Virus record (IMG/VR): IMGVR_UViG_3300022555_000031
Location: 21,611 to 85,610 of that record
DNA from: a virus
Lineage: Duplodnaviria; Caudoviricetes
Reading direction: 5' to 3' (one strand)
Length of the DNA stretch: 64,000 nucleotides
The translations under genes and the position numbers were made by a program. Below, piece after piece: positions 9,625 to 33,300 of this stretch (position 1 is the first letter of the stretch; the number at the start of each line of letters is the position of its first letter). The notes beneath the pieces were generated by a model, which had not been told where the DNA came from, searched no databases, and worked only from the letters and a program-made list of their open reading frames with translations.

Positions 9625-9629
9625 ATAGG

Positions 9630-11515: not shown

Positions 11516-13223
11516 GCAACTCCCACCTTTAACCGAGGAAGAGATTAAGGGGGCCAAGGAGATGGCTGAGGCCATCTTTACGCCGTCTGACGGGAGGACT
11601 CCAGAGGAGTGGATGGAGGACCTGTTCACTCCAGTTAAGGAGCAGAAGATAGAGGCGACGCCAGATGAACTTGGGGCTGAAGTATTGGCCACAGTCAGCC
11701 CAGAGACATTCTCCAAGTATTACTTTAATCAGACATTGTTTGGCAACCAGGTGGATATGGTGAAGGCCATTCTGGACCCAGTTATAAGGAAAGTCGAGAT
11801 AGTGGAGCCGAGGCAGGTGGGAAAAACGTCGGCGATTGCCACGGCATCTGGCATAGCGTTGGAGCAGTTGGGCACAGAGTATAATGAGGTCAGTCCGAAC
11901 GAACCATATAGAGTTGGTATCTTCTCTCCTAAGTTGGGGCAGGCTCAGATAGATGTTAATAGGTTGAAGAGATATTGCGAGCGGAATAAGAAGGCGTATC
12001 GCTTTGTCAATTGGAACGAAAGTAATTCCACCAAGTTGGTGTGGCATAATGGCTCAGAGCTTCATGCGGTATCGGCGAGTGAGCAGGCGGAAACAGAAGG
12101 TCAAACGTTCAATCTAATCATAATGGAAGAAGCCCAGAGGATATCCGATTACTCTGTCTCGGAAAAGATACTCCCTATGGGTGGAGCGACTGGTTCAAAG
12201 ATAGTCAAAGTCGGGACCGTGCGTGCGGTGCGTAATCATTTCTGGAAGTCATGGCACGACCCGCAACAAGGATATCATAAAGTTTCACATACCTGGATGA
12301 CCTGTCCCAATCTCCTACGTGGAGGATGGTTAACAGCCAATATAAATGGGGACCAATTGAAGTTGTCCAGGTATGTGATGGATAGGATGCCGTTGTCAAT
12401 CAAACAGCAACTCTATCCATCCAACCCAGAGTTATGGACGCATGGGGATATGGATGAAGCCGACTTCAGGACGCAGTATTTATTGGAGTGGCTGGAGACG
12501 CATGGCCTATATCTTACGGAGCGAGAGAGAGAGCTACTGATAGGGACCCATGAATTACAGACTGGGCACGTGGGCCAGGAGTATCTTGTGGCGGGGATAG
12601 ACTTCGCTGGTTCGGATAGCGATAACGCCGATGAGACTTCTATATCAGTATTGAGGGTCACCAACGCAAAAGTTAAAGAGAAGATATGGGGGTGCACGTT
12701 TAGGGGTGACCCGATGTCCCAGTTGCAGGAGATAGTAAACATCCTGCATCCTTATGTGGGGAAGTTCAGGCCGAGGAAGATTCTTGCCGACGCCACTGGG
12801 ATTGGATTATATCCCGTAGCCCAACTGAGGGCATCTGGCCTGCCAGTAGATGGGATTAACTTTGGGGCCACGGAGCCCGACAGTGCGTTATCTGGATTAA
12901 GCATGAACTATAAGAATGCCATGTGTTCGTATACGAAGTCCGAGATAGATAATGGGAGATTTAAGTATGCAAAGAAACAGCAGTATATTATCCCAGAGAT
13001 GAATGTCAACTACCACAAAGGATTGGACCAGTGGTTCGACCTGGAAGTAGAGAACACGGATAGAATCAACAAGCAGATAGGGCATGCCGACGGAGCCTAT
13101 GACGACGTAGTGATGTCGGATGTGCTGGCAGTATTCGCAAGCAAGACCGAGAGGACCATCCTCCCGCAGAGGAATCAAATGAATTCAATCAGGGTGGCAT
13201 TTGCACACCCAGGGATACGATAA
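11502..13223 (+). CDS. terL: terminase large subunit
   Basis: Walker A PRQVGKT, Walker B LIIMEEAQ, coupling motif VGT, RNase H-like AGIDFAG and DDVVMSD. Confidence 0.92.
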   Translation: MMENEQLPPLTEEEIKGAKEMAEAIFTPSDGRTPEEWMEDLFTPVKEQKIEATPDELGAEVLATVSPETFSKYYFNQTLFGNQVDMVKAILDPVIRKVEIVEPRQVGKTSAIATASGIALEQLGTEYNEVSPNEPYRVGIFSPKLGQAQIDVNRLKRYCERNKKAYRFVNWNESNSTKLVWHNGSELHAVSASEQAETEGQTFNLIIMEEAQRISDYSVSEKILPMGGATGSKIVKVGTVRAVRNHFWKSWHDPQQGYHKVSHTWMTCPNLLRGGWLTANINGDQLKLSRYVMDRMPLSIKQQLYPSNPELWTHGDMDEADFRTQYLLEWLETHGLYLTERERELLIGTHELQTGHVGQEYLVAGIDFAGSDSDNADETSISVLRVTNAKVKEKIWGCTFRGDPMSQLQEIVNILHPYVGKFRPRKILADATGIGLYPVAQLRASGLPVDGINFGATEPDSALSGLSMNYKNAMCSYTKSEIDNGRFKYAKKQQYIIPEMNVNYHKGLDQWFDLEVENTDRINKQIGHADGAYDDVVMSDVLAVFASKTERTILPQRNQMNSIRVAFAHPGIR

Positions 13224-16200
13224 TGAATAACGTTATGACAACAGCTAAGCTATATAAGTTCTTCGCCAACAACGATGACCTCAGTGTTTTCACTAACACT
13301 GCACTGTGGGGTGGCCCAAAATTTGTTAAAATGGGTAAGTTGCCAGAAGATGATTTACACCCAGGCAGGCCCCTGTATATAATGGCTAACTACAATGTAA
13401 GCTTTGAGCATGAAGGTTTCGAATTGCTTCCAGAAGAAGAGCGGGAGAACATTCTTGACAACGCCGTGATAGAGAAGGTGCTATCGTTGCCGAGTAAATG
13501 GGATGCTATCTGGGTGTATCATCATGATACGTTTGAGTGTATTTATAAGGAGCCACAGAACATCTTGTTAAGGGAAGGTATGAATAAAAGGGCAGATGGC
13601 GAGCCAGCTATCTTGCGTGGCGGTATGCTGTCAGTAGAAACTTTAGCCTATAAATTCTTCGATAGTGAGGAAGAGGCAAAGGAGTGGGCATGGGGAGGTC
13701 GGGCAAATGTTCGTCCAAATAATACATATGAGGGTGTTGGTACGGGATGGACAGCGGTTCGGGGTTATGACTGGAGGGTCTTTGTTCCCGAGGGATGGGT
13801 TACCCCAGGGATAGTGGGCGATGAGCTACATCCGACCAACGTGCAATTACTGTGCGAAGAAGTGCGTAAGGGATTCAGTGATGCTCCCGAGGAAGCGTTG
13901 TGGGACGAGGTGAGCGTTAGGTCAGGCGTTCCATCTGGCAATGGTAAGTCTTGGATAACGGTTCCAATGGAACCACGGAACATATTACTCCGAGAGGGCT
14001 CATTTGAAACAGACGCAGTAGTAGAGATAAGGGAGATAGAGAAGGAAGGGGCACGGGGTATATCAGTGGAAGGCGAAGAGAGTAATGAGAATGGAAGCTA
14101 CCGCCTCATCAAGATGATTTATCCGACGTCTATCCAGAGGTATACGAAGGGTCAGTTCAGGTGGTGTGTCTGTAGTCCAGAAACGGCAGAGAGAATGGGG
14201 ATATCCAAGGAGAAGCCGTTCTATGTGATAGAGAAGAACGGTCAACCATATGTTGCGTGGATAGATGGGGATGAGTATGTGTTTTCTGGATATAGTGGTC
14301 GCATCCCCATGACCCTAAGACAGTATAATGAGCTGAGGGAGCTGAAGACCTTTACCGTCCCAGAGATTGTTTTTACTGAAGAAGAGAAGGCTCGGGGGGC
14401 TATATCTTGCCACGATTTTACACAGAAGGACTACACTTGGGAGGAAGAACGTGATGAGAACAATGCCAAGGTTGACGCCAAGTGGGATGATGCCGATAGG
14501 GAGTTTATGACCCGTCAATGGAACCGCTACTGGGAGAGGCCCAAGGAGAATTACGCTCAAGCACAAGGTATAGAGAAGGAAGCCCTGGGCGGAGTAGAAA
14601 TGCACCCCTACTGGATAAGCAAGAACAACGAGTTGATTGATGTGAAGGAGTGTGGCGGGCATGGGTTCGTGTGGGAGGTTTCGGAAGAGGCTAAGGAAAC
14701 CACAAGGGAACATGTCGGCCCCCTTGGGGACGGTGTCGACATAGATGCAATCAGGGATACACTATTGATGCGGGGATGGGTTAGGATGGAGACGGTGTGG
14801 AAGTCTCTTATGTTGCAGGCAGAAACTGTCGAGAGCTTATACGATACCTACCCAGTGTGGAGGGAGTTTATTAAAGGTGACACAAGGTTCTTAATAGAGA
14901 TTAACGAGCCCCATAAGAGCTACGACCCCGTGAACCAGTATGAGTTAGAGGGGCACGGTATGAACATTTTTGACTATATAGGGAATGGTGGCGAGTTGGT
15001 GGATAACGAGACCAAGACGGCGAGTGGCGGTTACTCAGTAAAAGATATAGTGAAGGTGATGAAGGCAAGAGGAGAGAATTGTAGGGACCAGTGGGAAGAG
15101 TGGTATGGGTCAAGGGACGGCGGGAGCTGGATAATCGCTCCCAACGGAGATTGGTTCCCAGTGTCTCAGCATCAGGATTTCGAGGATGAGATGCGTGAGG
15201 AGTTTGGTATTAAGTGGACCGACGAAGATGAGGAGTGGATACGTGTAGCAGGTGGCCCGAAGGTAATAGCCTTCGGAGTACCGTTTGGGCCAAACAACCT
15301 GGAGAGGATAGAGAGGTTTATATCAGAGGTTTCACTCAGTGGGAATACTTTAGTTACAGACGGCAAGAGAGAGACGACAATAGAAGATGTCATAGAAGAT
15401 GGCTTAGTGAGTGCGTTGATGGGAAGAAGGTCAGCGAGCATAGGGAAGAAGGCCAGAGGAGAGGACGAGAAACTTGAGAGATACGTAGAGATGCTTGGCA
15501 AGTTCCTGGTGGAGGATTTGGATATCCGCAGGCTGGAAGATTGGGAAGATAGCGTGCGTAGTTGGTGTCAAGGCAGATATCTGCAGAACGCAGATTTTGA
15601 TGTAGAAGAGTATCTGCCACAGGAAGACTTAATATTGTGGCGGATATATTATTATCTCGTAAATGGCGACACGGTTATCGCTGACTGGCATGACGTTTAT
15701 ACCAAGAGAGCTATCACAGAGGCCCTTTGGCCGTATCTTGTGCCTGGAGTGCCAGACAGGAAAAACATATTCTTTGACAGTGATGGGAATTTGTCTACTG
15801 AGAATATTCAGATGTCGAAGCTTGAAGCCTACACGGATGAGCTTCAAATGGATGCCGAGCAATCAGCGTTGGACTACGGGTTCAATATCAACGACTACCT
15901 GGACCAATTTTTCAGTGTCAGTGAAGACGAGGGTGCGTTAGAGAAGCATGAGTTCGCCAGATATCTTCTTGGCAAAGACAGTTACAATCCCTATGAGGAT
16001 TTACCTGAAGAGAAGGAGCTGACCAAGAAGTTCTTCCAGGAGTTCAGTCGTGGTGGGATGAATATACTGGAGAGGGAAGGTAGGGTTAAGACTGCGATGA
16101 AATGGAACGGAGAATGGGAGCCTGTGGAGTGGGAACCCTTGGACGGGATGAATGAAGCTGTTAGGTTCCGTATTGCCGAGTCGGTGAGAGCAGGAGAGCT

Positions 16201-16954
16201 TGCTGGCCATATAAAGTATTACCGTGATGAAAACACCTTGGAGTATGTTGAATGGTCGCTCAATCGGGCCCTCAATAATAGATACCAAGCCTTTACGGAA
16301 ATCAGGGATGGTAAGAATAGTGGCGAGGGTTGGGAATTGGAGTGGATAGCCTCTTTGGGAAGAAGGGAGTCAACAAATATCCTCCTGAGAGAAGGAAGTA
16401 TTAACAAGGTTGCAGGGATGGAGCAGGCTGATGCACTCGTGAAAGGTGTGACACGGGGTGGACATCGTATGCTGATTCGCAAGGATGATGATGATGATAA
16501 CATAGAGATAGGCATTAGCTATGACCTGTGGGAAGAGGTTAAGAGGGATTACCTTGACGACAATATTAACATGACACAGATGTTTAACAAGTGGGTTCCT
16601 CGGCTTTGCGGTGTCGGGTTAACAATCCCAAGGGAAGATTTATATGGTGTCCGTATCATGACAACATACTTTGTTGATTTTTCCAATGACCATATCATGG
16701 AAATTAACATGTCGGTGGATGGGGCTAATGTACCCAGGGCCTGTTACGATGTGCCAAGCTTCAGGGAGGGCCTCGACTTCACTGACATATTAGACGCCAC
16801 GGGCTCAGAGAGTATCGAGGCTTGGTTGAAGGGTAAAGTAGAGCCGTTGAACATATTGTTAAGAGAGGGTTCTTTTGAACGAGATGCCATAGTAGAGATT
16901 AGGGAGGTGTCGGATGAGAGTGGAACGAACGGTTTGGCAGTGGTTAATCAGTAA
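13223..16954 (+). CDS. modular polyprotein A (1243 aa; 5 NILLREG-type junctions), putative internal head/ejection cargo
   Basis: Motif starts at 13559, 13979, 16061, 16376 and 16850; start overlaps the terL stop. Confidence 0.7.
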   Translation: MNNVMTTAKLYKFFANNDDLSVFTNTALWGGPKFVKMGKLPEDDLHPGRPLYIMANYNVSFEHEGFELLPEEERENILDNAVIEKVLSLPSKWDAIWVYHHDTFECIYKEPQNILLREGMNKRADGEPAILRGGMLSVETLAYKFFDSEEEAKEWAWGGRANVRPNNTYEGVGTGWTAVRGYDWRVFVPEGWVTPGIVGDELHPTNVQLLCEEVRKGFSDAPEEALWDEVSVRSGVPSGNGKSWITVPMEPRNILLREGSFETDAVVEIREIEKEGARGISVEGEESNENGSYRLIKMIYPTSIQRYTKGQFRWCVCSPETAERMGISKEKPFYVIEKNGQPYVAWIDGDEYVFSGYSGRIPMTLRQYNELRELKTFTVPEIVFTEEEKARGAISCHDFTQKDYTWEEERDENNAKVDAKWDDADREFMTRQWNRYWERPKENYAQAQGIEKEALGGVEMHPYWISKNNELIDVKECGGHGFVWEVSEEAKETTREHVGPLGDGVDIDAIRDTLLMRGWVRMETVWKSLMLQAETVESLYDTYPVWREFIKGDTRFLIEINEPHKSYDPVNQYELEGHGMNIFDYIGNGGELVDNETKTASGGYSVKDIVKVMKARGENCRDQWEEWYGSRDGGSWIIAPNGDWFPVSQHQDFEDEMREEFGIKWTDEDEEWIRVAGGPKVIAFGVPFGPNNLERIERFISEVSLSGNTLVTDGKRETTIEDVIEDGLVSALMGRRSASIGKKARGEDEKLERYVEMLGKFLVEDLDIRRLEDWEDSVRSWCQGRYLQNADFDVEEYLPQEDLILWRIYYYLVNGDTVIADWHDVYTKRAITEALWPYLVPGVPDRKNIFFDSDGNLSTENIQMSKLEAYTDELQMDAEQSALDYGFNINDYLDQFFSVSEDEGALEKHEFARYLLGKDSYNPYEDLPEEKELTKKFFQEFSRGGMNILEREGRVKTAMKWNGEWEPVEWEPLDGMNEAVRFRIAESVRAGELAGHIKYYRDENTLEYVEWSLNRALNNRYQAFTEIRDGKNSGEGWELEWIASLGRRESTNILLREGSINKVAGMEQADALVKGVTRGGHRMLIRKDDDDDNIEIGISYDLWEEVKRDYLDDNINMTQMFNKWVPRLCGVGLTIPREDLYGVRIMTTYFVDFSNDHIMEINMSVDGANVPRACYDVPSFREGLDFTDILDATGSESIEAWLKGKVEPLNILLREGSFERDAIVEIREVSDESGTNGLAVVNQ

Positions 16955-17513: not shown

Positions 17514-17758
17514 GGATGAGGCCGTCTATGGATAGTGGGTCAGTAGAGACCCGCAAGGCAGAAGCCCGTAAGATGATTTACGATGTCCTCGACCAGGATA
17601 GACAGGTATTTATTGGCGAGGTATTCGTTAACACAGGCATCACACCGCAGGAAATCAGCGAGAAGTTCATTATCAACGAGACAAGAATGATAACGGATGC
17701 CGACAAAGACGGGTACGGTTACAACGTAGAAGCCCGTGTCAGGCTGGTGAGGAAATGA
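17510..17758 (+). CDS. hypothetical protein
   Basis: ATGA overlaps at both ends suggest a start at 17510. Confidence 0.55.
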   Translation: MRMRPSMDSGSVETRKAEARKMIYDVLDQDRQVFIGEVFVNTGITPQEISEKFIINETRMITDADKDGYGYNVEARVRLVRK

Positions 17759-20700
17759 CGGAACAAGAGATAAATAAAATATGGGAGTTGGCCAGGAGCG
17801 TTAATCACAGCTTCCAGGTGAACCTGAGCTTTGAACGTGATGGTTCAGATGAAAAACAAATCAACATCTCTGCTGATATGGCGGAAGAACTGCGTAAAGA
17901 CCTTCTATCTGGGGATTCCAAGGAAGAGGTCTACGGGAGATGGTATAACAGAATTCCCACCAGCAGGGCTCTCCCGAGTAGCGGAGTTGTCTTTTTCAGT
18001 CTGCACGAATACTACCACATCAATCCGTCTGCTGGCATATACGAGAACGTGAACTACTGCCTATGCACGGGATATACACGGGAAATCCCAGGGCGTCTTG
18101 TGGATGTTGGCCCATGGATGTTCAGCACGTCACCCAGCAGATTCAGAAACTTACTTACGCAGTATGAAAGAGAGTATGGGAGGGATAAGTTGATAGATTT
18201 GTTAAACAGGCTCGCCTCGCAGAACATTCTGTTGCGTGAAGGTAGTCGAAAGGGTGCGGAGAAGCTTATTGAGAAGGTAAAGTGCGAGCACCAGTTGACA
18301 GTCACAGACGCCACCAATGATGATTCATGGGCCTGCGTGATTGATAGTAGCCTGTTCAAGTTAAAGGAAATTGAGGCCGACTTTGCGAATGGTGACCTCG
18401 GTGCCGACGGGATGGTGCAGAAGTGGTGGGATTTGCTTGGGGGAAGTGACGAGCCTACAGACGTTGAGAGTATTGAAATTATCAAGGTATACGATGTGAC
18501 GCTTAAAGACGGAGACCTGATTCAGATGTTTTTTAGTTTCAATGGGGAATATTATGAGTGGGTGGATATGGATACGTCGGGTTGTGGTGAAGACAGCGAT
18601 GGAGAAATATTTCAAGACGAAATAGATAGGATGAGCGATATGGCAAGGATACAGATGCTGGACAGTTTCCTTGAAGGAGAGAACATCTTGCTACGGGAAG
18701 GTAGCCGAAAGGGTGCGGAGAAATTGATAGCATGTGCAGAGCGTAGCCACCAACTCTTCATGGAGAGTGAGGAGTATGGTAAAGAGTGTTGGGAGGTGGG
18801 CAACGACTTAATAGGCGACGTAGAGGCCGATTTTAATAATTTAGATATAGACGGTGATACGTTTGTGTTGAAATGGCGTGGCCAGCTTGGCGGGGATGGG
18901 GTGAGGCTTAATACCGACACGGTTAAACTGTTCAGGAAATATAACGTGACATTCCAGGATGGGGGCTCGTGTTGGATTACTTTCGTACGTAAGCTAAACA
19001 GGCCTGAATACGGGGGACCCATTACAGACGCAGTTTACGGTGGTGGCGATGTGGCAAAATTTGAGAGGCACATACAGAGCATGTCGGACTCTGAGATAAT
19101 AAATATGTTGGATGATTTCCTTGAAGGCGAGAACATCTTATTAAGAGAGGGAAGTCTCAAGGGTGCTGATAAGTTGATTGACCGTGTAACCCGCAAGCAC
19201 TACTTGGACCTGGAGGGCGGTTTTGGTGCAGATTCTTATGACATAGAGATTGGTAGCGGGTCGTATCTTGAGGTTGTTGCTGATTATCTCAATGACAACG
19301 TTACCGTGGGAGACCTGATAGGTAAGTGGTGGGGCCCGTTGACTGATAAACCAAAGCCCGAAACACTTCACCTGGTCGGCAGTATCGGCGTGCAGAAGGT
19401 GTTGGATATCCGTGTCAAGGATGGGGGGTTGGTAAGGGTTACCTTGGAGTTAAACAAAGTAAGTCAATGCTATGAGCTTCTCCGTGTAGACGAGATGGTG
19501 CAGAGTTTGGACTCGAATAGTTTGCTGGACGAGATGGAGGAGGTACCCAATAGTGAGTGGCTTTTCTTGTTGGTCCCAAAGATTGAAGGAGAGAATATCT
19601 TGCTCCGTGAGGGCATGAACAAGAGAGCACAACTGGATAGTTCCCATATTATGGACGTTAAGCGGAATAATCGGATAGAGGTTATGGTGGGCGACGGCGA
19701 AGATAGGGGCGATTACACTGAGTGTAGCGATGATGAGTTCAAGGAGTTGCTTGCTGACGTTTCTAATAATTCTATAACCAACGAGGACTTTTTGCGGAAA
19801 TGGTGCCCGAGTGTCCCAGGGGAAGAGGCGTATGATTTGAATATGGCTATCTACTCGGAGTATTGCATCACATTTGCAGATGGCGGAGAGATAGAGTTCT
19901 CGCTGAGGTATATGGGGCTACAGGACACGAATCTGTGGAGACTACATAACCCAGAGGTCCATGTTGCGTCGGACCAGTCCAGTGCGTTCATGGATTACCT
20001 GACGAGGCCAGATATGGGGGCGGTAACTTATTCGAGGATGATACCAAATGAAGATGTGGAACAGTTGAACAACCTTTGCGGTGGGACGAACATATTACTG
20101 AGGGAGGGCACTCTGAAGAAGGCCGATAGCGTGGCGTCAATGAAACGGATGGACGAGTTGACCAGGTCTGTGACTTGCGAGAGAACGTTTGAGGTGTTGG
20201 CCCTGAACGCTGATAATCCCTCTCGTGAAGGTAGCTTGGACAAAAAGGCCATGAACACACTCCAGGATATGGAAGGGGTTGTGGCGTGGGTATCGCACAA
20301 GAATATCCTTTACTTACTTCCTCTGAACGGGGACTTTGGCATAGAAGTTGAGATACCAGACAGCCTGATACCAGACATTCTGATAGATTTTTCGAATGGC
20401 AACCTCAGTCAACAAGGGATAGCAAGGACATGGTGGCCCGACTTATCTGGTGGGGAGCAGGTGCCAGAGAATGAAGGTTGCAGACTCATCTCTCAGTATG
20501 CAGTGGAGATGAGCGATGGTGGTGCGTGCACGGTGGAGTATGTATCCGCCCCAGGCTTGGATGGGCATAGTGTGCATAGGATTACAAAAGAATCTAATGA
20601 CGCTAATGTGTTCTATGATTTAATTTTTAATTATAAAGACAGAGAAGTTTACGAGTGGCTGATTGATAGGGTAAGTGGGAAGAACATTTTGCTAAGAGAG

Positions 20701-23700
20701 GGGGCCTTGGGTAAGGAGGCGAGGGTGAGATTAGAGGATATGAGCGACCAGGTAGAAGAGATAACACACGAGAACATCTTCTACGTGGTGCGGTGTGCGA
20801 CTTCTGAAAACACAGACTTCGAGATACCAGATGATATCCTTGCAGAGGTTTGCCATGATTACATGAGTCTAAGAAGTGCCCAAGAGGTGATAGACAAGTG
20901 GTGGGGTAAGATATCTACACAGCCAAAGCCAGAAGACTACGAGGGAGTGAGGATTGTTTCCCAGTATTATGTAGGCATGAATGATGGTGGTATTGGCCGA
21001 CTGGAGTTTATATTGGACACCGTTCATGGGTGGTCCTGGTTATTTCACGAAGAGTATCAACCCTCTTCGGCTATACGCAATCTCGAGCGGTTACTAAGTG
21101 GTGTGACGGCCAGCAAGGCAATTGATTGGTTAAACACCAGGATGGAGGGGGTTAACATCCTGCTCAGAGAAGGAACCGTTAAGACGGCTCTTGAGGAATA
21201 CCCATTGAATAGGGTGAACGATAAAGTGACATGTGTGAAGAGTCAGCTTGCGTTGGTGTTTCATATGTATACTTATAATGAAAGAGCCGAAGAGATTGTG
21301 GTAATCCCCCGTGAATACGAAAAAGGTGTTATTACTGATTACGTAGACCAAGCTATAGACATATCGGGAATGGTGGAGAAGTGGTGCCCGAAACTGTTCG
21401 AAGATGGGCATCGGATGCGGGACGGCAGTGCACTTGAGCTGTGCACGGGGATTGACCTGCTTCGTCAGTATATAGTTGCAACAGATGATGGCGGGGAGAT
21501 GGGGTTTGATTATAAATGTAACACCGACCCGCAGGATTTTATCTATTACGAGCGGGGTATAATGACAGAGACTCCGCATGCCAAATTGGTCTTTGACGAG
21601 ATAGCGGACGACGAAGATAGGCTTGGTTGGTTGAATATGTGGGCAAACGGGATAAACATACTCGAGAGAGAGGGGAGCGTAAAGACTGCCGAGTCGGATG
21701 TGGAGTGGGATAAGATAAGCGATATGATAGAGAAGGTGGATTATCAGTTGTGGATTGATTATACGGGGGATAGTGTCTACTTTGACCCGCTTGAAGTCCC
21801 CCGTGAGCTCGAGCAAGAGATAATCAAGGAATACCATGACCTTGAAGGTGTAGGGGTGGAGATTGGGACTATACATGCCGTGCAGGCGTTCTTTGATAAA
21901 TGGTTCCCCCGCTTAGGAGTGGAAGAGGATATCCCGACATACAATCCCAATAGGGATAGTTGGGGATTCACAACCGAATACATTGTTGCGGTGAAAGGTG
22001 GTGGAACTGTAACTGTTTCAGCGTATGGAGAGCCAGCGGAAGTGACTGAAGACATTCGGGAGATAGACGGTTATGGTGAGGGTCAGCCCTACTTTGAATT
22101 TTACGATGCGATTGGATATGCCTGGGAAGTAGACCCAGAGCGTCTGCGTGAGCTTTTGTGGAACAGGTATCAGGGTGGGCAGAACATATTATTAAGGGAA
22201 GGTCGGGGTAGCCTATTCCGAGGGATAGATTTTTCCGTTGTATCAGGTGTAGATATTCATGTCTATATTGAATGGGAAGACCAATATGACGGTCGAAAGA
22301 GGGGCCATGTTGAGTTGCAGGGTGACGACCTGCGGGATGCGTCAAATATTTACCGTAGCTGGGGTGAGGCTCCTGAATACTTCAAGGAACATTATCTGCC
22401 AAAATTCATTCCAGAGGGGATGGACATTTATCCACTTTACCCGAAAGTTACAGTGGAGGGGACGATTACAACGGCAGATGGCGGGAAGTTACGCTTTGAT
22501 AACAGCTATTTATGGCAATTAGGAGAGCCTACTCCTCAATCTAAAAAACTATGCAGAAAGATTTACAGTCGTCGGGAGGCACATTGCACGGCAGATTTCG
22601 TTGCGTGGGCCGTTGAGTTCCAGGAGGGCTCCACGAACATATTGTTACGTGAAGGGTCTCAAAGGGAAGTAGTACCGTTCTACTATCCCAACGTGCAGGT
22701 GTTGTTGGAAAACTTCCCACAGTATGAGGGCAGGCTTCAGACAGTTAATCCAGACGAGGTTAGGGAATGGATAAGCGAGGTAGAGGGTAGGGCCGAGACA
22801 AAGTTTAATGAGAGCATAAGCCCAGAGGATTATTTATCCAAGGACGATAGCTGGGCCTACAACGTATTGGGAAACGCACTTGGGGTATGCCCAATAGACT
22901 ATGATGACCGTGAAGAGGTATTTGATTACCTCAAGCAGTTCTTGATTAACCCATTGACTACAATCGATGAATTATTCCCAAGGTCAGACGTGGTCCCGCC
23001 GTTTGAAAGGTACCTGGACGAGGGAAAGATGCGGTATGCCTATGAGTATTTATGGGATGCGGGATATGAGAGGGCCCTTTCAATTGATTTCTGTGCACAG
23101 GATTATCTTGACGAAGCAGAGGGGCAGATGTTGATTTGTGCCCTATTCCTGGTTGGTGATGCGGAGGCGTTGGCTCCTGCAAGCATATGGGATAAGTTCT
23201 TTATCAAGTTCTCACCCAAGACCACGTTAGAGCGTGAAGGTGTAAGGGTTGAAGGCATGATGAGGAAGGCGTCGATAGAGTTCACGCCGATAGATTTGGG
23301 CGGGATAGTGAACGCTTATGACTTTATGTCAGTCCATCCAGAATACGACCCCAGGAAGGGTGGTGAGGTTGTTGACAGTGGTCCCATTGATAGAAGGAGA
23401 ACAGTGGCGAAGCTTGTCACGATACTCGGGACAAACGGCAAACACGCAGTATTATTGATGGACGACGGTTCCAGATACCTGGTTGGCAAGAAGCCGTTCC
23501 AGTTGCTACATGGGGCCTGGGAGGCCAATCTCTCTGGCAAGGGTGTCACTGAAAAGATGGAGAAGCTACGTGATAATCTTAACGAAGAGCAAGGTGAGGC
23601 TGAAATAGATTTTGTGGGAGAAGTAGACCAGCACAGGGCGGATGATTTGTTCAAGACCTGGGAGGAGTTAACTCCCAATGAGCAAGTAATGGTAGCGAAG

Positions 23701-25806
23701 AAGATACCAACTACAAAAACCAAGACACCGATAAAACTCTACTACAACGACCACGTGAAAGAGTTCGCCATCTTCAGGAAGCCAGTAAAGAAGAAAGCGG
23801 ATGCCGTGGATGCACCGAAGGGGCAGTGGCAGGATAGTAGCCTGTTGTCTCATGAATACGGAATTACATTAGGCCCGTCGATGGCGAGCATTGGATGTTA
23901 TTATCCAGATGAATCCGAGAAGAGCCTAAGGCTTCTCTATATAATATCTCGTAGACACGTTAGCACTTGTTATTTGCAAGGTAAAGATGATGGATACGTT
24001 GAGGAGCTGGTTGATACTCTCGCACGTTATCTTATGCGACAAGTGGCAGACGAAGGGATTACTATAGAAGATTTAATGAGAGAGTATGCCAACCACACAC
24101 GGGACTTTAATGAGACAGTTGAGCGGGTGCAAAATTCAATTGGCAATATCCTGTTACGAGAGGGGAGCCTGGAGAAGAAGTCTGAGTATGATTTTAACCA
24201 TGGACAGTGGCCGATGGCGGGGATGATTGGTGGAGTTGGGGAATTTGCCCGAGAAGACGGTCAAGGCCTCGGGCACCATTACAAATTAGACCTGGACGGT
24301 TACACCCGTGTCGGCTGTTTCGATGGAGGGGTAGATAATAAAGACCATCAGTGGAAGGTATACTTCTTAGGTAGGGCAGTAGTAATTATTACGGATTTTA
24401 ATTATAGCTGGGAATACGCTGAGGGAGCTGTTAACGCTATCGGCAGGCATTTAGTTGAACAGACCAAGACCGATGGAGTTACCTTTGAGACAATCACCAA
24501 CGGGTTTGAATGGGATAGACGCAAGTTCAGGGAGATGGTCCAGTCGGTTGGCAGTTCAGTCCTACCGCCCCTGTTAAGGGAGGGGAGTGCGGTCGGGACC
24601 CGTGAGGATGCCAGCAAACTGAGTCTGGGTGGAGATTATTGGTGGAGGGGAATAACGGAAGACGAGGCGAAGTACATAATAGAGAACAACAAGTTTAAGT
24701 ATCATTCCGATGTGCCGATATACTGTGACCCCGAGGTTATGGAGTTCTTGGGAATGACCGATGAAGAAGGCGAGGAGATAGAGAGATATATCGGCAAGCG
24801 GAAGGTGGTTAACGTTACCAAGGACCTTGAGAACGCCAGGGGTTATGGGCCGTATGTTGTAGCGGTGCCACGGGATGCAGTTGAAGAGTATGACCAGTAT
24901 GGGTTTGTGTTATTCGAGACCCCAGTGAGCAAGGTGTTTGATTCAGGGGACGCCCTTGCCGTCCGAGAGGCCAAGTTGAATGTTGGTGAACTTGTGTGGG
25001 GTTCACACGATAACGGTGACGAGTATTGCGAGATGCAACTGCTCCCAGATAACTCACGTGGAACGGGCGGTGTCTCGCTTGTTGCTCAGAGGAACTGGAT
25101 GAAAGAGTGGAACCTATTCCTGAATCAAAGGGATGGTAGAATTATATCACTGCAAATGCCAGGTGACCCCAGTAGTGAGATGATAGAAAATCTTGTTAGG
25201 GGAGTTGCGAGGCGACTGATACCGCTCGGCATTGATATGTTTGGCGGGAGTAATTTCATCCACGCCTTAGAGGAGACCCAAGGAGATATCCCGACGATAC
25301 TGAGGGAAGGTAAAAAGAAATCACTCATTGACGACGTGAAGCAGGTTGAGCACACGTGGTCGCTCACACCGAGCGACGGGGATTCATGGGAGATACCGAA
25401 ACCGATACTCAATGAAGTGAAGGGTGACTACGAGAATATGAGTACCAAGAAGTTCCTGGAGAAGTGGTGGGAGGTTATTACTGAGCTTCCGTGGAGACCC
25501 GAGGATTACGAAGGACTGTTTAACGAGGGAGGGAATGTAGATGATTACAATGGGTTTGGCATAGACATAGACCATTCTTACTGGATTCAGATGAAAGACG
25601 GCGGGGAGCTCTTTATAGATTACTATGGATTTTATGAGGGTGGTGAGCCACAGATGAACGTTTCGACTCCGCAGGCGGATGCACTCTTCCGTATGTTAAA
25701 GTATGGCGGTGACGGTAACGACGAGTCGGAGGAAATCATGGACCAGTTGGAGCAGATGGTGGAACCGTTGAACATCTTACTGAGAGAGGGTAAAAAGATT
25801 GACTAA
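17755..25806 (+). CDS. giant modular polyprotein B (2683 aa; about 17 modules, 16 junction motifs)
   Basis: Uninterrupted ORF; motifs mostly 150-180 aa apart; many modules share a D[YF]...KW[WC/F]P...Y.V...DGG pattern. Confidence 0.8.
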   Translation: MTEQEINKIWELARSVNHSFQVNLSFERDGSDEKQINISADMAEELRKDLLSGDSKEEVYGRWYNRIPTSRALPSSGVVFFSLHEYYHINPSAGIYENVNYCLCTGYTREIPGRLVDVGPWMFSTSPSRFRNLLTQYEREYGRDKLIDLLNRLASQNILLREGSRKGAEKLIEKVKCEHQLTVTDATNDDSWACVIDSSLFKLKEIEADFANGDLGADGMVQKWWDLLGGSDEPTDVESIEIIKVYDVTLKDGDLIQMFFSFNGEYYEWVDMDTSGCGEDSDGEIFQDEIDRMSDMARIQMLDSFLEGENILLREGSRKGAEKLIACAERSHQLFMESEEYGKECWEVGNDLIGDVEADFNNLDIDGDTFVLKWRGQLGGDGVRLNTDTVKLFRKYNVTFQDGGSCWITFVRKLNRPEYGGPITDAVYGGGDVAKFERHIQSMSDSEIINMLDDFLEGENILLREGSLKGADKLIDRVTRKHYLDLEGGFGADSYDIEIGSGSYLEVVADYLNDNVTVGDLIGKWWGPLTDKPKPETLHLVGSIGVQKVLDIRVKDGGLVRVTLELNKVSQCYELLRVDEMVQSLDSNSLLDEMEEVPNSEWLFLLVPKIEGENILLREGMNKRAQLDSSHIMDVKRNNRIEVMVGDGEDRGDYTECSDDEFKELLADVSNNSITNEDFLRKWCPSVPGEEAYDLNMAIYSEYCITFADGGEIEFSLRYMGLQDTNLWRLHNPEVHVASDQSSAFMDYLTRPDMGAVTYSRMIPNEDVEQLNNLCGGTNILLREGTLKKADSVASMKRMDELTRSVTCERTFEVLALNADNPSREGSLDKKAMNTLQDMEGVVAWVSHKNILYLLPLNGDFGIEVEIPDSLIPDILIDFSNGNLSQQGIARTWWPDLSGGEQVPENEGCRLISQYAVEMSDGGACTVEYVSAPGLDGHSVHRITKESNDANVFYDLIFNYKDREVYEWLIDRVSGKNILLREGALGKEARVRLEDMSDQVEEITHENIFYVVRCATSENTDFEIPDDILAEVCHDYMSLRSAQEVIDKWWGKISTQPKPEDYEGVRIVSQYYVGMNDGGIGRLEFILDTVHGWSWLFHEEYQPSSAIRNLERLLSGVTASKAIDWLNTRMEGVNILLREGTVKTALEEYPLNRVNDKVTCVKSQLALVFHMYTYNERAEEIVVIPREYEKGVITDYVDQAIDISGMVEKWCPKLFEDGHRMRDGSALELCTGIDLLRQYIVATDDGGEMGFDYKCNTDPQDFIYYERGIMTETPHAKLVFDEIADDEDRLGWLNMWANGINILEREGSVKTAESDVEWDKISDMIEKVDYQLWIDYTGDSVYFDPLEVPRELEQEIIKEYHDLEGVGVEIGTIHAVQAFFDKWFPRLGVEEDIPTYNPNRDSWGFTTEYIVAVKGGGTVTVSAYGEPAEVTEDIREIDGYGEGQPYFEFYDAIGYAWEVDPERLRELLWNRYQGGQNILLREGRGSLFRGIDFSVVSGVDIHVYIEWEDQYDGRKRGHVELQGDDLRDASNIYRSWGEAPEYFKEHYLPKFIPEGMDIYPLYPKVTVEGTITTADGGKLRFDNSYLWQLGEPTPQSKKLCRKIYSRREAHCTADFVAWAVEFQEGSTNILLREGSQREVVPFYYPNVQVLLENFPQYEGRLQTVNPDEVREWISEVEGRAETKFNESISPEDYLSKDDSWAYNVLGNALGVCPIDYDDREEVFDYLKQFLINPLTTIDELFPRSDVVPPFERYLDEGKMRYAYEYLWDAGYERALSIDFCAQDYLDEAEGQMLICALFLVGDAEALAPASIWDKFFIKFSPKTTLEREGVRVEGMMRKASIEFTPIDLGGIVNAYDFMSVHPEYDPRKGGEVVDSGPIDRRRTVAKLVTILGTNGKHAVLLMDDGSRYLVGKKPFQLLHGAWEANLSGKGVTEKMEKLRDNLNEEQGEAEIDFVGEVDQHRADDLFKTWEELTPNEQVMVAKKIPTTKTKTPIKLYYNDHVKEFAIFRKPVKKKADAVDAPKGQWQDSSLLSHEYGITLGPSMASIGCYYPDESEKSLRLLYIISRRHVSTCYLQGKDDGYVEELVDTLARYLMRQVADEGITIEDLMREYANHTRDFNETVERVQNSIGNILLREGSLEKKSEYDFNHGQWPMAGMIGGVGEFAREDGQGLGHHYKLDLDGYTRVGCFDGGVDNKDHQWKVYFLGRAVVIITDFNYSWEYAEGAVNAIGRHLVEQTKTDGVTFETITNGFEWDRRKFREMVQSVGSSVLPPLLREGSAVGTREDASKLSLGGDYWWRGITEDEAKYIIENNKFKYHSDVPIYCDPEVMEFLGMTDEEGEEIERYIGKRKVVNVTKDLENARGYGPYVVAVPRDAVEEYDQYGFVLFETPVSKVFDSGDALAVREAKLNVGELVWGSHDNGDEYCEMQLLPDNSRGTGGVSLVAQRNWMKEWNLFLNQRDGRIISLQMPGDPSSEMIENLVRGVARRLIPLGIDMFGGSNFIHALEETQGDIPTILREGKKKSLIDDVKQVEHTWSLTPSDGDSWEIPKPILNEVKGDYENMSTKKFLEKWWEVITELPWRPEDYEGLFNEGGNVDDYNGFGIDIDHSYWIQMKDGGELFIDYYGFYEGGEPQMNVSTPQADALFRMLKYGGDGNDESEEIMDQLEQMVEPLNILLREGKKID

Positions 25807-25812
25807 GATATT

Positions 25813-25839
25813 TTGTTTATTTGCCAAATATGCTATAAT
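25813..25839 (+). promoter_or_regulatory. extended -10 promoter
   Basis: TG-C-TATAAT at 25831-25839 in an AT-rich intergenic gap; GGAGG RBS at 25861. Confidence 0.55.
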
Positions 25840-25871
25840 ACACACAAAGGGAATATATCTGGAGGACTCCT

Positions 25872-26156
25872 GTGGCCATATGTGAACACTGCGGGAAAGA
25901 CATCTCCACTTTGAACAATGTTCAGAGTGGCTATGTGATATACGAGATGGATGCCAACGGCTCATATTCTCAAGTTGACGGCTTCGAACCAGACGGTAAC
26001 ATGAATGAGTGGCACTGTCCTAACTGTAGCTCCAACATTGCGTTGTGCGAAGAAGATGCGATGGAATTTTTAAGTAGAGGAGTCCCAGGGGACAACATTC
26101 TCACCCGAGAAGGTAAAACCAGGCGAGTAGCCTTCAAACGCAATCATACGTCTTAA
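25872..26156 (+). CDS. Zn-ribbon protein with C-terminal NILTREG motif (single-module cassette)
   Basis: GTG start with GGAGG; CEHC and CPNC; DNILTREGK at 26091-26117. Confidence 0.7.
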   Translation: MAICEHCGKDISTLNNVQSGYVIYEMDANGSYSQVDGFEPDGNMNEWHCPNCSSNIALCEEDAMEFLSRGVPGDNILTREGKTRRVAFKRNHTS

Positions 26157-26168
26157 TAGGAGGAAGTT

Positions 26169-28636: not shown

Positions 28637-28648
28637 AGGAGGAATACA

Positions 28649-30220: not shown

Positions 30221-30337
30221 ATGATTAAAGGCGGAAAGCATAGCGAGGAGACTAAGAGGAAAATGAGTGAGGCTCGCTCTGGTGAGCGTAATGCTTTTTA
30301 TGGAAAACGACATACAAGTGTCTTGGTCGGGAAGTGA
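30221..30337 (+). pseudogene. NUMOD3 motif remnant of a homing endonuclease
   Basis: Translated by hand: MIKGGKHSEETKRKMSEARSGERNAFYGKRHT. Confidence 0.65.
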
Positions 30338-30338
30338 G

Positions 30339-33300
30339 ATGCCCACTAAAACGATACAGATAACACTGCTTGACAGTCTTGGGCCCACGAGGCAATCATC
30401 TTTTTGGTACGACGGGATAGTGGCGATTAGCACCAATTGCAAGGTGGTGGCTGAAGGGGAGCTGAGGGTGGTCTTTAAACCAGACAAGGCCTACATTGGT
30501 GTGTCTGCGGTGGAAAAGGCAATGGACTTGGGGTTGGACGACGACACTCTGCCGAATGCAATTGGGGCATTTGTATACAGCAATTGGTACGAGGTTCAAC
30601 CTGTCACAAATATAGCGAGAGATATTGTGCCCACGGAGTTGGACAATATTGTTGAGGGTGACGACATTGAGAGCATAAAGGAAGCGTTGATTTTTTGGGA
30701 GAACGAGATTGCGGACCAAGAGGGGTATACTCCCGAGTTTGTTTTCAGGGGGTTTCAGGATGACAGAAATATTCTTTTAAGAGAAGGGGGAGCGACAATG
30801 CCCAGAATAGCCAAAGAGGGAATGGTTAGCCGAGTTGACCAGCGGTTCGACCGTGAGGCCGAGCTTATTGCACAAGGGACCACTATCACTATCCAGGCTG
30901 ATGGTGAACCAAAGATGCTCTCCGTCTCTCAGCGTAAAACCGACAATGGGTTTGAATATGAGGCTCATGACGTTTTAACCAACGAAAAGATTAAGGTGGC
31001 GAGTGTAGAGCAGGTTAAGACGCTTTACGCTTTGCAATCTTTAATCGAGCAGTGTTTTGGTTTAGGGAAAGAAAGTGCTAAGGTAGCGGACCTTGCACAG
31101 CAGGCCCTTCTCAACCTATACGGCCTGCCTGAGTTCAAGGAAAAGTATAAACCCCTGCAGGCTGATAAGGTTGCCGAGACTGGATACGCCCACAACATCC
31201 TCTCACAGGTTTATTCCGATGCAGAGCTGGAGAAGATAATTGCATTAAGACACAACGTGGACAAGGACCTGGCACTGCTTAAAGAGATAGCGTTGTACCT
31301 GAGGAAAGAGGTTTACGCCCAGGTCGCTTATATGGCCACGAAGATGACCCAGCAACTTCACGACAGTGGTGTTGATGTGGATGAGGCCTGTAAGACGGTG
31401 ATGGATGTGTATGGGGCCTTTGATAAGATGCTGGATGGCGATAACCCTATCGGGAATAAGCGGGTTGGTATCATAGAGTTTGGGGTCAGACATTATTACG
31501 TTTCAGTGGATAGGAAAGCTGAATACGACGGCATCATAAAAAACCTGGAAGACAGTGCTCAGTTGGTAATACGGCTTGTTGAATCTGGCCTGGCGTATGA
31601 TGAGATAGTCACTGAGCTGGAGAAGGCGAATGACGGGAAACCGCTACCGTCAAGTTCCCGTGCGATAGCGTTGCTGAACAACATTTTCCCTGAGAAAAAG
31701 TGGAGTCAGATGTTCAGGGGTGGTTTAGCGAACTACCAGTTTATTCGGACTGGGGAATCCATCGGGAGCATTTCCGAGGGAGACAAGATAGTTATCAAAC
31801 ATAAAGACCTTGACGTAATGAAAGGGGTCGTTAAGTGGATAGACGAAGAAGCAAATGTCGTCCGAGTTGAGACGGAATTCGTAGGAGCGGAAGACCGTGG
31901 CACCATGATGCACGACTTCAATTACTACGAGTTTATGAAGAAGGTAGACGAGAAAGAGATAGTGAAGACTGCCTGGGGCGAGGGGAAGCATTATAAACTA
32001 ACTTTGTCCCCAGTTGTTCCTGAAGGTTACGGTGATTTATTTGCCACCCAGGAGCAGAACGAAGAGCATTTTAGGTATACCACGATGCGGAGATACCTGG
32101 ACGTAAATGACCTTGGGAGTGGCCCGAACTATGTTTATTTCTCAGAGAAGATACTCCCGAAGATAATGAGGGTACTTGAAAGGGATGTGGCAAAGGGCAA
32201 TGTCGATTCAGACTCAGTCCTGCTTGAGCAAGTGGTTGGTGGTGGCAGTGAAGTCGCCGAGTCGTGGCATGGATGGGATGAAATCAAAGGCATGGGGAAG
32301 ATTGCGATGATGAAAGAAGCAGACCTCCGCATGGCGTATTTTGTAAACCATATACCAGTTGGGGGGAAGTATCCCATCTGTGCGTGCATGGAGAACAGGC
32401 GTGGATACACTCAGCACATGACGAATTCTTACGATACACTTGAAGAGGCAGAAGCGGAAGCCGATAGGCTTAATGAGGAGATGGGGATATCCAAGAAGGA
32501 CTCCATGACAATCGTGTTGCGTTCGATGGGGGCTGGGAATAGGCCCATTATAGATAAACCCGAAGCGAAATATACTGTAATAATCGATGACACTGGTTTA
32601 AGGGATTCCGAGATGGAGATGCTTCACGAGTTCATAGGCGGACAATTCGGTGAAACTCCATACGGGACTATCGAGGGGCAGGTGTTTGAGGGTAAACTTG
32701 AGAGCTTAATTATGGCCCTTGAGAAGCTCGTGAAGGCCAAGAAGATTGGCAAGGATGTTATTCTTAATAGCGAGGAAGGCGAGTGGAAGGGTTTGCGTGA
32801 GATAAAGAAACGGTTCAAGGTCCAGACTACTCTCGAAAGAGAGGGGGCAGTGGGGTTGGGTAATGTGAGATTTATTATTGATTGGTGGGGCGACGACGAG
32901 GATAATGATATTGATTTAGCGGACTTGATAGACATGCTTGACAATGCCGAGGTTGAATATCCAGATGAAGAAGATATTGGGGAGTGTATGGTTGTTAGAG
33001 GTGAAATCATACCAGACGGGTCCAAGATTGGCGAGTTGCTCCACAAATTAGGTCTGTATGAGGTAAGCGGGAAGGTCCAAAACGATGGCGTGACTGCAAA
33101 GTATAATGGAATGGGATACAATGGCCTGAGGACCATCAGGGAAGCTTACAAGAGTGGCAACCTTGAACCTCAGAACATTTTGGAGCGGGAAGGCAAGGTG
33201 GTAAGAACTGCATCCAGGCCAATTAAAAGGGACTGGGCGGTTAGCATGGTAAGGGGCAGGGACCTTGTGGGTGTATATTTCGCCGATACTGATGGGTGTG

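Follow-up and report, generated by a model that had tools for sequence, protein, structure and literature searches.

A tag-punctuated polyprotein of diverged paralogous domains in the head-gene block of a huge relative of Bacillus phage G

Background

Between the terminase and portal genes of a huge uncultured relative of Bacillus phage G there is a single open reading frame in which one short peptide recurs at intervals. What does such a frame encode: one giant protein, or a series of proteins that are made together and then separated? And if the latter, why are so many of them versions of the same domain? The frame lies in a window of 64,000 nucleotides, positions 21,611 to 85,610 of the IMG/VR record IMGVR_UViG_3300022555_000031. 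An earlier note, made from the letters of this window, described a tandem array of one novel, highly diverged and acidic domain, and suggested an arms-race repertoire whose members would block or imitate host targets, a different one for every copy, with the T4 internal proteins and acidic DNA mimics as precedents.

The internal proteins of phage T4 are basic, are encoded by separate genes, and carry an N-terminal tag of 10–20 aa. In the T-even phages they form a diverse set of proteins that counter host defences, the only common element of which is the capsid targeting sequence (PMC3012670). Cleavage on the C-terminal side of Glu is the rule for the prohead proteases of T4, phiKZ and SPN3US (PMC5694885). 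Here we investigate the repeated domain, the peptide that separates its copies, and the genes that surround them.

Results

Layout of polyprotein B

The frame, referred to here as polyprotein B, runs without interruption for 2,683 aa to a TAA stop codon and contains 15 junction peptides of the form [N]IL[L/E]REG. Modules B1 to B15 were defined by splitting the frame after the Glu of each junction peptide, which leaves a 5-aa tail (Table 1). Recoding of stop codons so as to extend the frame was considered and rejected: TAA ends 19 of 28 ORFs, and there is no sign of recoding. An ADP-ribosyltransferase identity for B14 was likewise dismissed, as searches of Pfam, PHROGs and PDB sequences gave it no support.

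Table 1. Features of the tagged block and its neighbours (positions in the window)
Feature	Position	Strand	Description	Basis
Large terminase	11502..13223	+	37% identical to Bacillus phage G gp1	
Polyprotein A	13223..16954	+	1,243 aa, 5 tags	
A5	16394..16867	+	one family member, inside polyprotein A	
Polyprotein B	17755..25806	+	2,683 aa: 15 modules, 15 tags, 5-aa tail	
B1	17755..18240	+	weak, probably degenerate family member; RW..P kept, DGG lost	
B2	18241..18699	+	family member; pI 4.05, net charge -24	BLASTP, HMM, alignment
B3	18700..19149	+	family member	BLASTP, HMM, alignment
B4	19150..19611	+	family member	BLASTP, HMM, alignment
B5	19612..20106	+	family member	BLASTP, HMM, alignment
B6	20107..20700	+	family member; 41-aa remnant in front, ending in decayed junction NPSREGS	
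B7	20701..21171	+	family member; module chosen for folding (pLDDT 89.4, pTM 0.82)	
B8	21172..21672	+	family member	BLASTP, HMM, alignment
B9	21673..22200	+	family member	HMM, hhalign
B10	22201..22653	+	weak family member; W and DGG kept	
B11	22654..23238	+	unrelated module	
B12	23239..24162	+	unrelated, 308 aa; C-terminal half paralogous to B13	BLASTP 3e-6
B13	24163..24582	+	unrelated to family; paralogue of B12 C-terminal half	
B14	24583..25308	+	unrelated module, 242 aa	
B15	25309..25788	+	family member; four unrelated modules between it and B1–B10	
First of 15 B tags	18223..18243	+	NILLREG	
Further B tags, 21 nt each	starts 18682, 19132, 19594, 20089, 20683, 21154, 21655	+		
Remaining B tags, 21 nt each	starts 22183, 22636, 23221, 24145, 24565, 25291, 25771	+		
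Cys-rich one-module gene	25872..26156	+	94 aa; NILTREG 13 aa before end	
Polyprotein C	30267..35498	+	1,743 aa, 5 tags, one of them NILLRE-S	
Protein D	36592..40665	+	1,357 aa, 1 tag; HEIAH motif at aa 958	
Portal with intein	56252..58438	+	40% identical to phage G gp14	
Prohead protease, phage G gp19-like	60616..63999	+	LAGLIDADG intein splits ORF; long C-terminal extension; runs off contig	

A family of old paralogues

With the junctions trimmed, all-against-all BLASTP linked B2–B10, B15 and A5, the best pairs having E values of 1e-17 to 1e-18. Leave-one-out HMMs (junctions trimmed, Z=1000) recovered B2–B9, B15 and A5 at 1.8e-6 to 6.7e-19, and the unrelated modules scored 41–140 in the same test. 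Judged by sequence comparison, these ten are clearly true, deeply diverged paralogues. B1 (HMM 3.5e-4; hhalign 8.9e-5 trimmed and 5.8e-8 untrimmed) and B10 (hhalign 0.0045; BLASTP 2e-4 to B5) are probably degenerate members, the controls lying at 0.15–0.7. B11–B14 fell outside the family in the HMM and hhalign comparisons. The tally of ten firm and two weak copies is thus near the earlier note's count of about 11 modules plus one at about 16400–16850 in polyprotein A, which is A5; both the array with its shared skeleton and the outlying copy were real. The skeleton is visible in the alignments. D53, W67, Y89 and G96 (B7 numbering), which fall within the motifs D[YF], KW.P and Y.V...DGG, are kept in at least 90% of 14 aligned sequences.

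The claim of strong divergence also held, since pairwise identity among copies is 11–34% outside the junctions, and at this level of protein identity the synonymous sites are saturated. Is this diversity still being generated? In the sole strain comparison, with the 97.6%-identical strain L003, B15 has one substitution and one 3-nt insertion. That it is nearly unchanged indicates old divergence of paralogues and no ongoing hypervariation. A diversity-generating mechanism was rejected: the one patch that varies between the strains, of 43 nt, is not adenine-specific and lies in B14, outside the family. Shuffling through tags identical at the DNA level was rejected as well, for most tag sites are spelled with different synonymous codons.

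Fold, autonomy and relatives of the domain

When B7 was modelled alone with AF2 it gave a compact alpha/beta domain, with the tag residues disordered. Foldseek on the predicted structure, the check proposed in the earlier note, gave no structural relative: the best Foldseek TM was 0.39 in the PDB, Foldseek found no match in BFVD (best TM 0.36), and the best VIA-align hit in the PDB, at Z 5.3, was to an unrelated helical protein. Foldseek matches to Med18/20 and to CYTH triphosphatases were set aside as not meaningful at TM below 0.4, as were the VIA-align hits at Z of 5.3 or less. The ESM Atlas holds no look-alike of the domain, Pfam has no match for B, A, C or single modules, and PHROGs has none for the module; across the PDB, BFVD, ESM Atlas, Pfam and PHROGs searches, the module had no fold, family or defence-related match.

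Among 1.8–5.8 billion proteins searched, only four distant homologues were found (P0012, P0015, P0018 and P0020), each a separate gene with a single domain. P0012 is flanked by TLLERE-A and TLLEQE-G, one of these tags lying 24 aa from its N-terminus. P0018 and P0020 sit among many small unnamed genes, in what looks like an accessory or early region. Long profile matches (P0003, P0005, P0010 and others) were spurious: the proteins consist of Thr/Asp-rich repeats, and nothing beyond the Y.V..DGG hairpin aligns. Searches with the whole ORF found a sole relative, a 353-aa fragment from the 97.6%-identical strain, deposited under ENA ERZ18625277, and tblastn of entire ORF B against 50,697 phage records found no match. 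A terminase scan of IMG/VR for relatives gave no match either. In 25 portal relatives the domain and tag are absent within 10 kb, and neither is near the head genes of Bacillus phage G.

The single-module model and the single-domain homologue genes together show the domain, on prediction, to be an autonomous folding unit. An AF2 model of two modules, built from only 4 sequences, had a pTM of 0.49 and hence no confident fixed geometry; in it a continuous helix spans the junction and connects the two modules, at pLDDT 63–67. A helical junction of this kind would be less accessible to a protease. One rigid solenoid, the reading that would have undone the idea of separable modules, was rejected as far as this model can tell: the module folds alone, the homologues have single domains, A5 and B15 lie apart from the rest, and the junction is weakly predicted. 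The family modules do constitute one novel domain, with no known relative beyond the four distant homologues.

Acidity

The earlier note was right that the modules are acidic, with pI values of 4.05–4.66 for ten copies and 5.4–5.5 for B1 and B10. Nevertheless, all four tagged polyproteins have a low pI (4.56–4.90, against a contig median of 5.9), so acidity is not special to the repeated domain. The T4 scaffold-core proteins gp22 (pI 4.58) and gp67 (pI 4.05) are likewise acidic. Being common to the tagged polyproteins and to these T4 proteins, acidity is no specific pointer to DNA mimicry. The contig median also excludes a halophile-wide trait.

The junction tag

The tag, N-I-L-[L/E]-R-E-G, occurs 27 times on the 85.6-kb contig, always on the + strand and only in five ORFs between terminase and portal; the contig scan gave no intermediate scores elsewhere. 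Exact NIL[LE]REG was observed 21 times against 0.0008 expected, and L-R-E is present in 27 of 27. The synonymous variation of the tag codons indicates that selection acts on the peptide. Within the polyproteins the tags sit exactly between folded units, and ORF A, ORF B and the one-module gene at 25872–26156 each have one 4–28 aa short of the C-terminus as well. For a spacer such positions would be less fitting than for a cleavage signal or a tag.

The tag is shown by its sequence to resemble the Leu-x-Glu site of the T4 gp21 type. The N-terminus of T4 gp24 reads MAKINELLRE-STTT (NC_000866), in which INELLRE-S is similar to NILLRE-G. The tag thus looks like a head-protease cutting site. Known motifs of prohead proteases, however, have three residues, and a near-invariant site of seven is much more stringent, which counts against a cut of that kind.

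Candidate proteases

The protease ORF at the end of the window matches phrog_18299 (3.6e-12; annotated as a head maturation protease) and phage G gp19 (36–56% identity), itself annotated as a head maturation protease. It had no match to a Pfam peptidase family. A profile of the gp19 family aligned with T4 gp21 at an hhalign E of 0.09, with the catalytic His and Ser in register; this is not significant, and kinship at that level counts against assigning the cutting to this enzyme. The portal and the available 1,128 aa of the protease ORF are without a tag, which also counts against it, and the major capsid gene is beyond the contig end.

Other peptidases are encoded, or may be. The HEIAH motif of protein D is followed by a downstream Glu, but the region had no peptidase family or PDB match even at E up to 10. 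A papain-like C1 peptidase lies at 3644–4498 (Pfam 3.4e-12). An upstream Ubl-E2-JAB-E1 cluster includes a JAB gene with the motif HSH-x7-S-xx-D, as well as an E1; the phage's own Ubl ends in ...KGG-R.

Discussion

A proposed load-and-cut mechanism

We consider it somewhat more probable than the converse that ORF B encodes cargo for the capsid, loaded as a polyprotein and cleaved there to acidic products of ~17 kDa. The head-gene block would have four such tagged polyproteins, and this one would be made as a single chain whose 15 modules fold independently. Twelve modules (B1–B10, B15 and A5), B1 and B10 probably so, are old, diverged duplicates of an alpha/beta domain of ~140 aa, and N-I-L-L-R-E-G at every boundary would be a protease site, cut after Glu. 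Since the copies are separated by a protease-site-like tag, they are probably loaded into the capsid as one chain and then cut: the whole chain would enter once and yield, in equal numbers, some 15 acidic proteins of this size, which would remain in the head until they left it together with the DNA. The parts of this proposal differ in strength. Cleavage at the tags is quite likely, and packaging of the modules in the capsid fairly so; if there is cleavage, we lean towards the phage's gp19-like prohead protease, acting inside the prohead, as the enzyme.

What would the released domains do? Their likeliest role would be as small host-directed binders with diverged surfaces on a conserved core, and the arms-race inhibitor repertoire of the earlier note is a possible reading. 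That the copies have distinct host targets is, however, doubtful: among the fold and family searches no hit points to a target. More speculative again is a capsid-delivered, one-chain binder library, in which twelve re-surfaced copies of a scaffold would neutralise, in fixed ratio, a dozen host defence or housekeeping targets at DNA entry. If so, and we hold it to be unlikely, a phage would have something comparable to an immune-style repertoire, made possible by its own load-and-cut tag.

The facts behind the idea of a target repertoire are equally explained by a structural role inside the head. Loading and cutting would be as above, and the twelve paralogues would form an internal head body or a scaffold-core-like assembly of equimolar, non-identical subunits, in which sequence drift is tolerated and only fold and packing matter, as in the phiKZ-like paralogous inner-body proteins. 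With a single chain every copy is made in a strict 1:1 ratio to the others, the conserved W, Y and DGG turn look like fold determinants, the four tagged polyproteins share the acidity of T4 core gp22 and gp67, B15 is almost unchanged in L003, and protease-processed paralogues are present in the heads of SPN3US and phiKZ (PMC5694885). Nonetheless, we think this improbable. The absence of domain and tag near the head genes of phage G and the 25 portal-related phages indicates that the clade does not need it as a core component of the head; the homologues elsewhere are encoded singly in small genes, and two of these have small neighbours that do not look structural; and A5 and B15 stand apart from the main run.

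Less probable still is that another phage protease cuts the tag outside the prohead and that the cytoplasm of the producing cell is where the modules work; this would be a genuine polyprotein strategy of the viral type, comparable to the seven-residue potyvirus NIa sites. Dedicated polyprotein proteases typically recognise strict sites of seven residues, embedded peptidases have been proposed to free the domains of polyvalent proteins (PMC5512222), and the HEIAH region (inside a tagged protein), the C1 peptidase and the JAB protein, with an E1 also encoded, are all candidates. Yet the first of these had no family match, the phage Ubl does not end in ...REG, the tags are restricted to the terminase-to-portal block, and what characterises head proteases of the T4 type is a Glu at P1. 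Very unlikely indeed is a chain that is never cut, a giant beads-on-a-string virion protein with NILLREG as structural joint or docking motif. The continuous helix at the modelled junction would suit it; but tags 4–13 aa before stop codons have nothing to join, P0012 in another phage is a single domain flanked by tags on both sides, the two-module model has no confident fixed geometry, and the modules are predicted to be autonomous domains.

Comparison with known systems

For load-and-cut in the head the closest parallel is T4, and there the precedent named in the earlier note suits the anatomy: the Leu-x-Glu rule, a propeptide end like that of gp24, and a head block with a prohead protease. 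The design would be that of the T4 internal protein with its targeting and cleavage tag, written as a polyprotein. As with IPI, IPII, IPIII, Alt and gp24, which are cut by gp21, diverse small proteins share one short tag ending in Leu/Ile-x-Glu and are encoded in or near the head block. Unlike the separate, N-terminally tagged genes of T4, up to 15 modules share a frame here, twelve are paralogous and all are acidic, and the tag, of seven near-invariant residues, is C-terminal to or between modules; a tag near the N-terminus, as in T4, is present solely in P0012, a distant homologue. The opposite placement of the tag and the opposite charge of the proteins speak against capsid loading and cutting of the T4 kind.

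Polyvalent proteins (Iyer, Burroughs, Anand, de Souza and Aravind 2017, PMC5512222) also have many domains per polypeptide, are encoded beside virion genes, and, according to the proposal, accompany the DNA and are freed by proteolytic cleavage. The layout here is of that type, with 15 modules in one polypeptide between terminase and portal. None of the hallmark domains (ART, MuF, ParB-like, primase, MPTase and others) was found by Pfam in B, A, C or single modules, or by PHROGs; instead one repeated orphan domain dominates, and the boundaries carry an explicit repeated tag that is not described in PMC5512222. In phiKZ-like jumbo phages (phiKZ gp93 family; SPN3US gp53 and gp54), diverged paralogues in the head are cut after Glu by the prohead protease and ejected into the host. 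These inner-body and ejection proteins differ in having separate genes, long N-terminal propeptides and S/A/G-x-E sites, and no relation to them in sequence or fold was found (PHROGs; tblastn; BFVD best TM 0.36).

The polyproteins of RNA viruses (potyvirus NIa, picornavirus 3C) offer an analogy only. They too are one chain with many products and a near-invariant multi-residue site, with Glu or Gln at P1 and Gly or Ser at P1', but the genome here is of a tailed phage with dsDNA, the search for a chymotrypsin-like protease found none, and in place of a replication toolkit there are paralogous modules. In comparison with DNA mimics of the Ocr and ArdA type, the module had no PDB fold match (Foldseek TM 0.39, VIA-align Z 5.3), and its acidity is common to all the tagged proteins. 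Polyubiquitin-like precursors cut by DUB or JAB enzymes are not matched, the tag ending in ...L-R-E-G and the phage Ubl in ...K-G-G-R.

Conclusions

No description of such an arrangement for tailed phages was found in the searchable literature. Should cutting of the tags take place in the prohead, a polyprotein with one portable tag would solve the general problem of loading many different small proteins into a capsid in fixed amounts. The seven-residue tag could also serve to direct foreign proteins into large capsids. The repeated domain is extremely rare, with no fold match in the PDB or BFVD, and its twelve copies are a ready panel for asking whether paralogues delivered by the capsid have divided host targets among themselves.

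Results

A tagged gene block between terminase and portal

The window is the terminal 64 kb of a single-contig virus record of 85.6 kb, and its long ORFs lie on the plus strand without exception. The interval from terminase to portal is 43 kb here and includes four very large ORFs, versus ~10 kb of ordinary genes in Bacillus phage G. ORF B, the largest of the four (2,683 aa, TAA stop), contains the heptapeptide [N]-I-L-[L/E]-R-E-G 15 times. A position-weight scan of six frames found 27 such tag sites on the contig, all on the plus strand, and no sites of intermediate score anywhere else on it; the exact form NIL[LE]REG was observed 21 times against 0.0008 expected. Arg and Glu are invariant in the 27 sites, and Leu at P4 and Gly at P1' (numbered from a presumed cut after Glu) are each present in 26. 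Codon use at L, R, E and G varies freely from site to site, and the conservation is therefore at the level of the peptide rather than of a DNA or RNA signal. The tag stands at each boundary between folded units and again 4 residues before the end of ORF B, 13 before that of the one-module gene and 28 before that of ORF A. Such positions are hard to explain for a spacer but understandable for a recognition and cleavage signal. The contig scan found no tag in the portal or in as much of the protease ORF as the contig covers; the capsid gene is off the contig.

Features of the window
Feature	Position	Strand	Tags	Remarks
C1 peptidase gene	3644-4498			papain family (Pfam 3.4e-12; phrog_16701)
Large terminase	11502-13223	+		37% identity to phage G gp1
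ORF A	13223-16954	+	5	
ORF B	17755-25806	+	15	
One-module gene	25872-26156	+	1	94 aa
Tail-fibre-type protein	27125-28636			collagen-like, G-x-x repeat; phrog_5073 (1.5e-27)
ORF C	30267-35498	+	5	
ORF D	36592-40665	+	1	
mCpol protein	51941-53359			472 aa; minimal CRISPR polymerase domain (Pfam 2e-18)
Portal	56252-58438	+		40% identity to phage G gp14; intein/Hint, aa 106-271
Unnamed ORF	58767-60434			555 aa; intein/Hint
Prohead protease ORF	60616-63999	+		N- and C-exteins match gp19, phage G head maturation protease; intein/Hint, aa 229-579, with LAGLIDADG domain

The collagen-like gene lies within the tagged block, between polyproteins B and C. The mCpol gene is found a short way upstream of the portal, among genes for large unnamed proteins. 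The three intein/Hint insertions fall inside 8 kb. The protease ORF continues for ~480 aa beyond the protease domain and then runs off the contig; in 4 of 25 portal relatives the protease also lies within an ORF of 1,230-1,300 aa. Four small ORFs of phage G (110-129 aa stop to stop, 26117-33103) are paralogues with a common C-terminal motif KENDRYL; they are separate genes of a family unrelated to the ORF B domain.

An acidic domain family

Cutting after the tag Glu splits ORF B into modules B1-B15 and a 5-aa tail. With junction residues trimmed, BLASTP links B2-B10, B15 and A5, a module of ORF A. Leave-one-out profiles retrieved B2-B9, B15 and A5 at E values of 1.8e-6 to 6.7e-19, so that the modules do align significantly, while ten unrelated control modules of A, B and C gave 41-140; B1 and B10 matched weakly, yet better than the controls. 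B11-B14 are unrelated to the family. By sequence comparison we assign one orphan domain to 11 of the 15 ORF B modules, and ORF A contributes a twelfth copy. The motif skeleton described in the earlier note, D[YF], KW.P and Y.V...DGG, reappears as the conserved columns of the alignment. Copies share 11-34% identity; neighbours are slightly more similar (23%) than non-neighbours (20%; permutation p 0.04), the pattern that old tandem duplication would be expected to leave.

Signs of module turnover were also seen. B6 opens with a 41-aa remnant (20107-20232) closing in a decayed junction, NPSREGS, and the 28-aa tail of ORF A (16868-16954) repeats the first ~20 residues of module A3 (13997-14060). 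The C-terminal half of B12 (23700-24162) is paralogous to B13 (24163-24582; 3e-6), and A3 and D1 have a ~100-aa segment in common (4e-5; 13997-16078 and 36592-38712).

The AF2 model of B7 (14-sequence alignment; pLDDT 89.4, pTM 0.82) runs helix, two strands, two helices, three-stranded meander and two C-terminal helices, with the Y.V..DGG hairpin in the meander and the final six residues, the tag, disordered. A B2-B3 model (4 sequences, pTM 0.49) repeats this topology twice, joined by a lower-confidence through-helix (pLDDT 63-67). The rigid solenoid that the earlier note had set against its reading is ruled out as far as this shallow model shows; a single module folds compactly alone. Nothing convincing matched B7 in PDB and BFVD (Foldseek, TM at most 0.39) or 48,161 chains (VIA-align, best Z 5.3), and the ESM Atlas gave no match. 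The domain is thus a compact, autonomous unit that lacks any detectable structural relative.

Distribution and strain variation

A profile run against 1.84 billion representatives gave 18 matches, two being fragments of a 97.6%-identical strain and three genuine single-domain proteins (P0012, P0015, P0018). Five long matches, when inspected, were Thr/Asp-rich or other tandem-repeat proteins, several aligning only at the hairpin; these and all other remaining matches we take to be spurious. A word-seeded search added a further single-domain homologue, P0020. Many small unnamed genes surround P0018 and P0020. In P0012, TLLERE-A stands 24 residues from the N-terminus and TLLEQE-G seven residues from the C-terminus, so a second, distant phage brackets one domain copy with a similar tag. 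Whole-ORF searches with ORF B found no further arrays, and in the 25 portal-related phages neither domain nor tag lies within 10 kb of the portal.

In the strain fragment L003, B15 differs by one substitution and one codon insertion, which gives no sign of ongoing hypervariation in this one fragment. Compared with 23327-25951 of the window, L003 breaks the ORF B frame twice (16-nt deletion at 23776-23791, +1 insertion at 24728) and has a 43-nt patch with 19 substitutions (24591-24633) shortly after the B13/B14 tag. These could be real variation or assembly error.

Discussion

Cleavage by the prohead proteases of T4, phiKZ, 201phi2-1 and SPN3US follows a Glu in every case, the motif being (L/I)-x-E or (S/A/G)-x-E, and gp24, the vertex protein of T4, carries a propeptide of 10-20 residues at its N-terminus (PMC5694885). 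The L-R-E of the tag conforms to this rule, and the gp24 N-terminus, MAKINELLRE-STTT (NC_000866), is close to the tag. T-even internal proteins are a diverse anti-defence set with only a capsid-targeting sequence in common (PMC3012670). Together with the tag placement, these likenesses lead us to read ORF B as a probable capsid-loaded cargo polyprotein. Several points weaken this reading. A site of seven near-invariant residues is far more stringent than the motifs known for head proteases, and the portal and the protease sequence on the contig are free of the tag. The gp19 family did not match T4 gp21 significantly (hhalign E 0.09), although catalytic His and Ser are in register.

The presence of other candidate enzymes also weakens it. 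Tagged protein D has a HEIAH motif (aa 958, window 39463) with ...PHELKAY ~50 aa downstream, zincin-like by motif only, as neither a family nor a PDB entry matched this region. The C1 peptidase is a possible processing enzyme, as is a JAB peptidase upstream of the window, although the Ubl of its own Ubl-E2-JAB-E1 cluster terminates in KGG-R and not REG. That conjugation set (L008, genome coordinates 3882-10046) comprises a 98-aa Ubl ORF ending ...NVKGGR, an E2-like ORF (HPHV..GHCCLG), a JAB ORF (HSH-x7-S-xx-D), a ThiF-type E1 (8.7e-20) and then an SbcC/Rad50-like ORF; four ORFs (4239-10046) form one frame parted only by TAG codons.

What do the copies do? The earlier note took the many diverged paralogues to suggest an arms-race repertoire, each inhibiting or mimicking a different host target, with T4 IPI-type inhibitors and acidic DNA mimics as precedent. 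The acidity is real (pI 4.05-4.66 in ten copies) but not special to the domain, since all four tagged polyproteins share it. In T4, gp22 and gp67 of the scaffold core are acidic too, whereas the internal proteins are basic, so acidity suits a core or inner-body role equally well. Such a structural internal role seems improbable to us. Three points speak for a host-directed role: the domain is missing from the other sampled members of the phage G clade, its homologues elsewhere are small genes that stand alone, two of them within runs of genes that look accessory, and T4 provides a precedent. The analyses here indicate no target for the copies, and the conserved positions seem to be ones that determine the fold; that each copy has a distinct host target we regard as a tentative idea, on the doubtful side.

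ORF B works like the T4 tagged internal proteins, but in T4 the targeting peptide is N-terminal and on separate genes. It also works like the polyvalent proteins of Iyer et al. (PMC5512222), but is without any hallmark polyvalent domain. ORF B lacks defining features of each, and literature searches found no description of phage polyproteins of its kind. For the reading as capsid-loaded cargo, we infer the steps from tag to cutting, prohead and ejection as follows. The polyprotein would enter the prohead as one chain, and the gp19-like protease would cut it after each tag Glu. Some 15 equimolar acidic proteins would then be released and would leave with the DNA.
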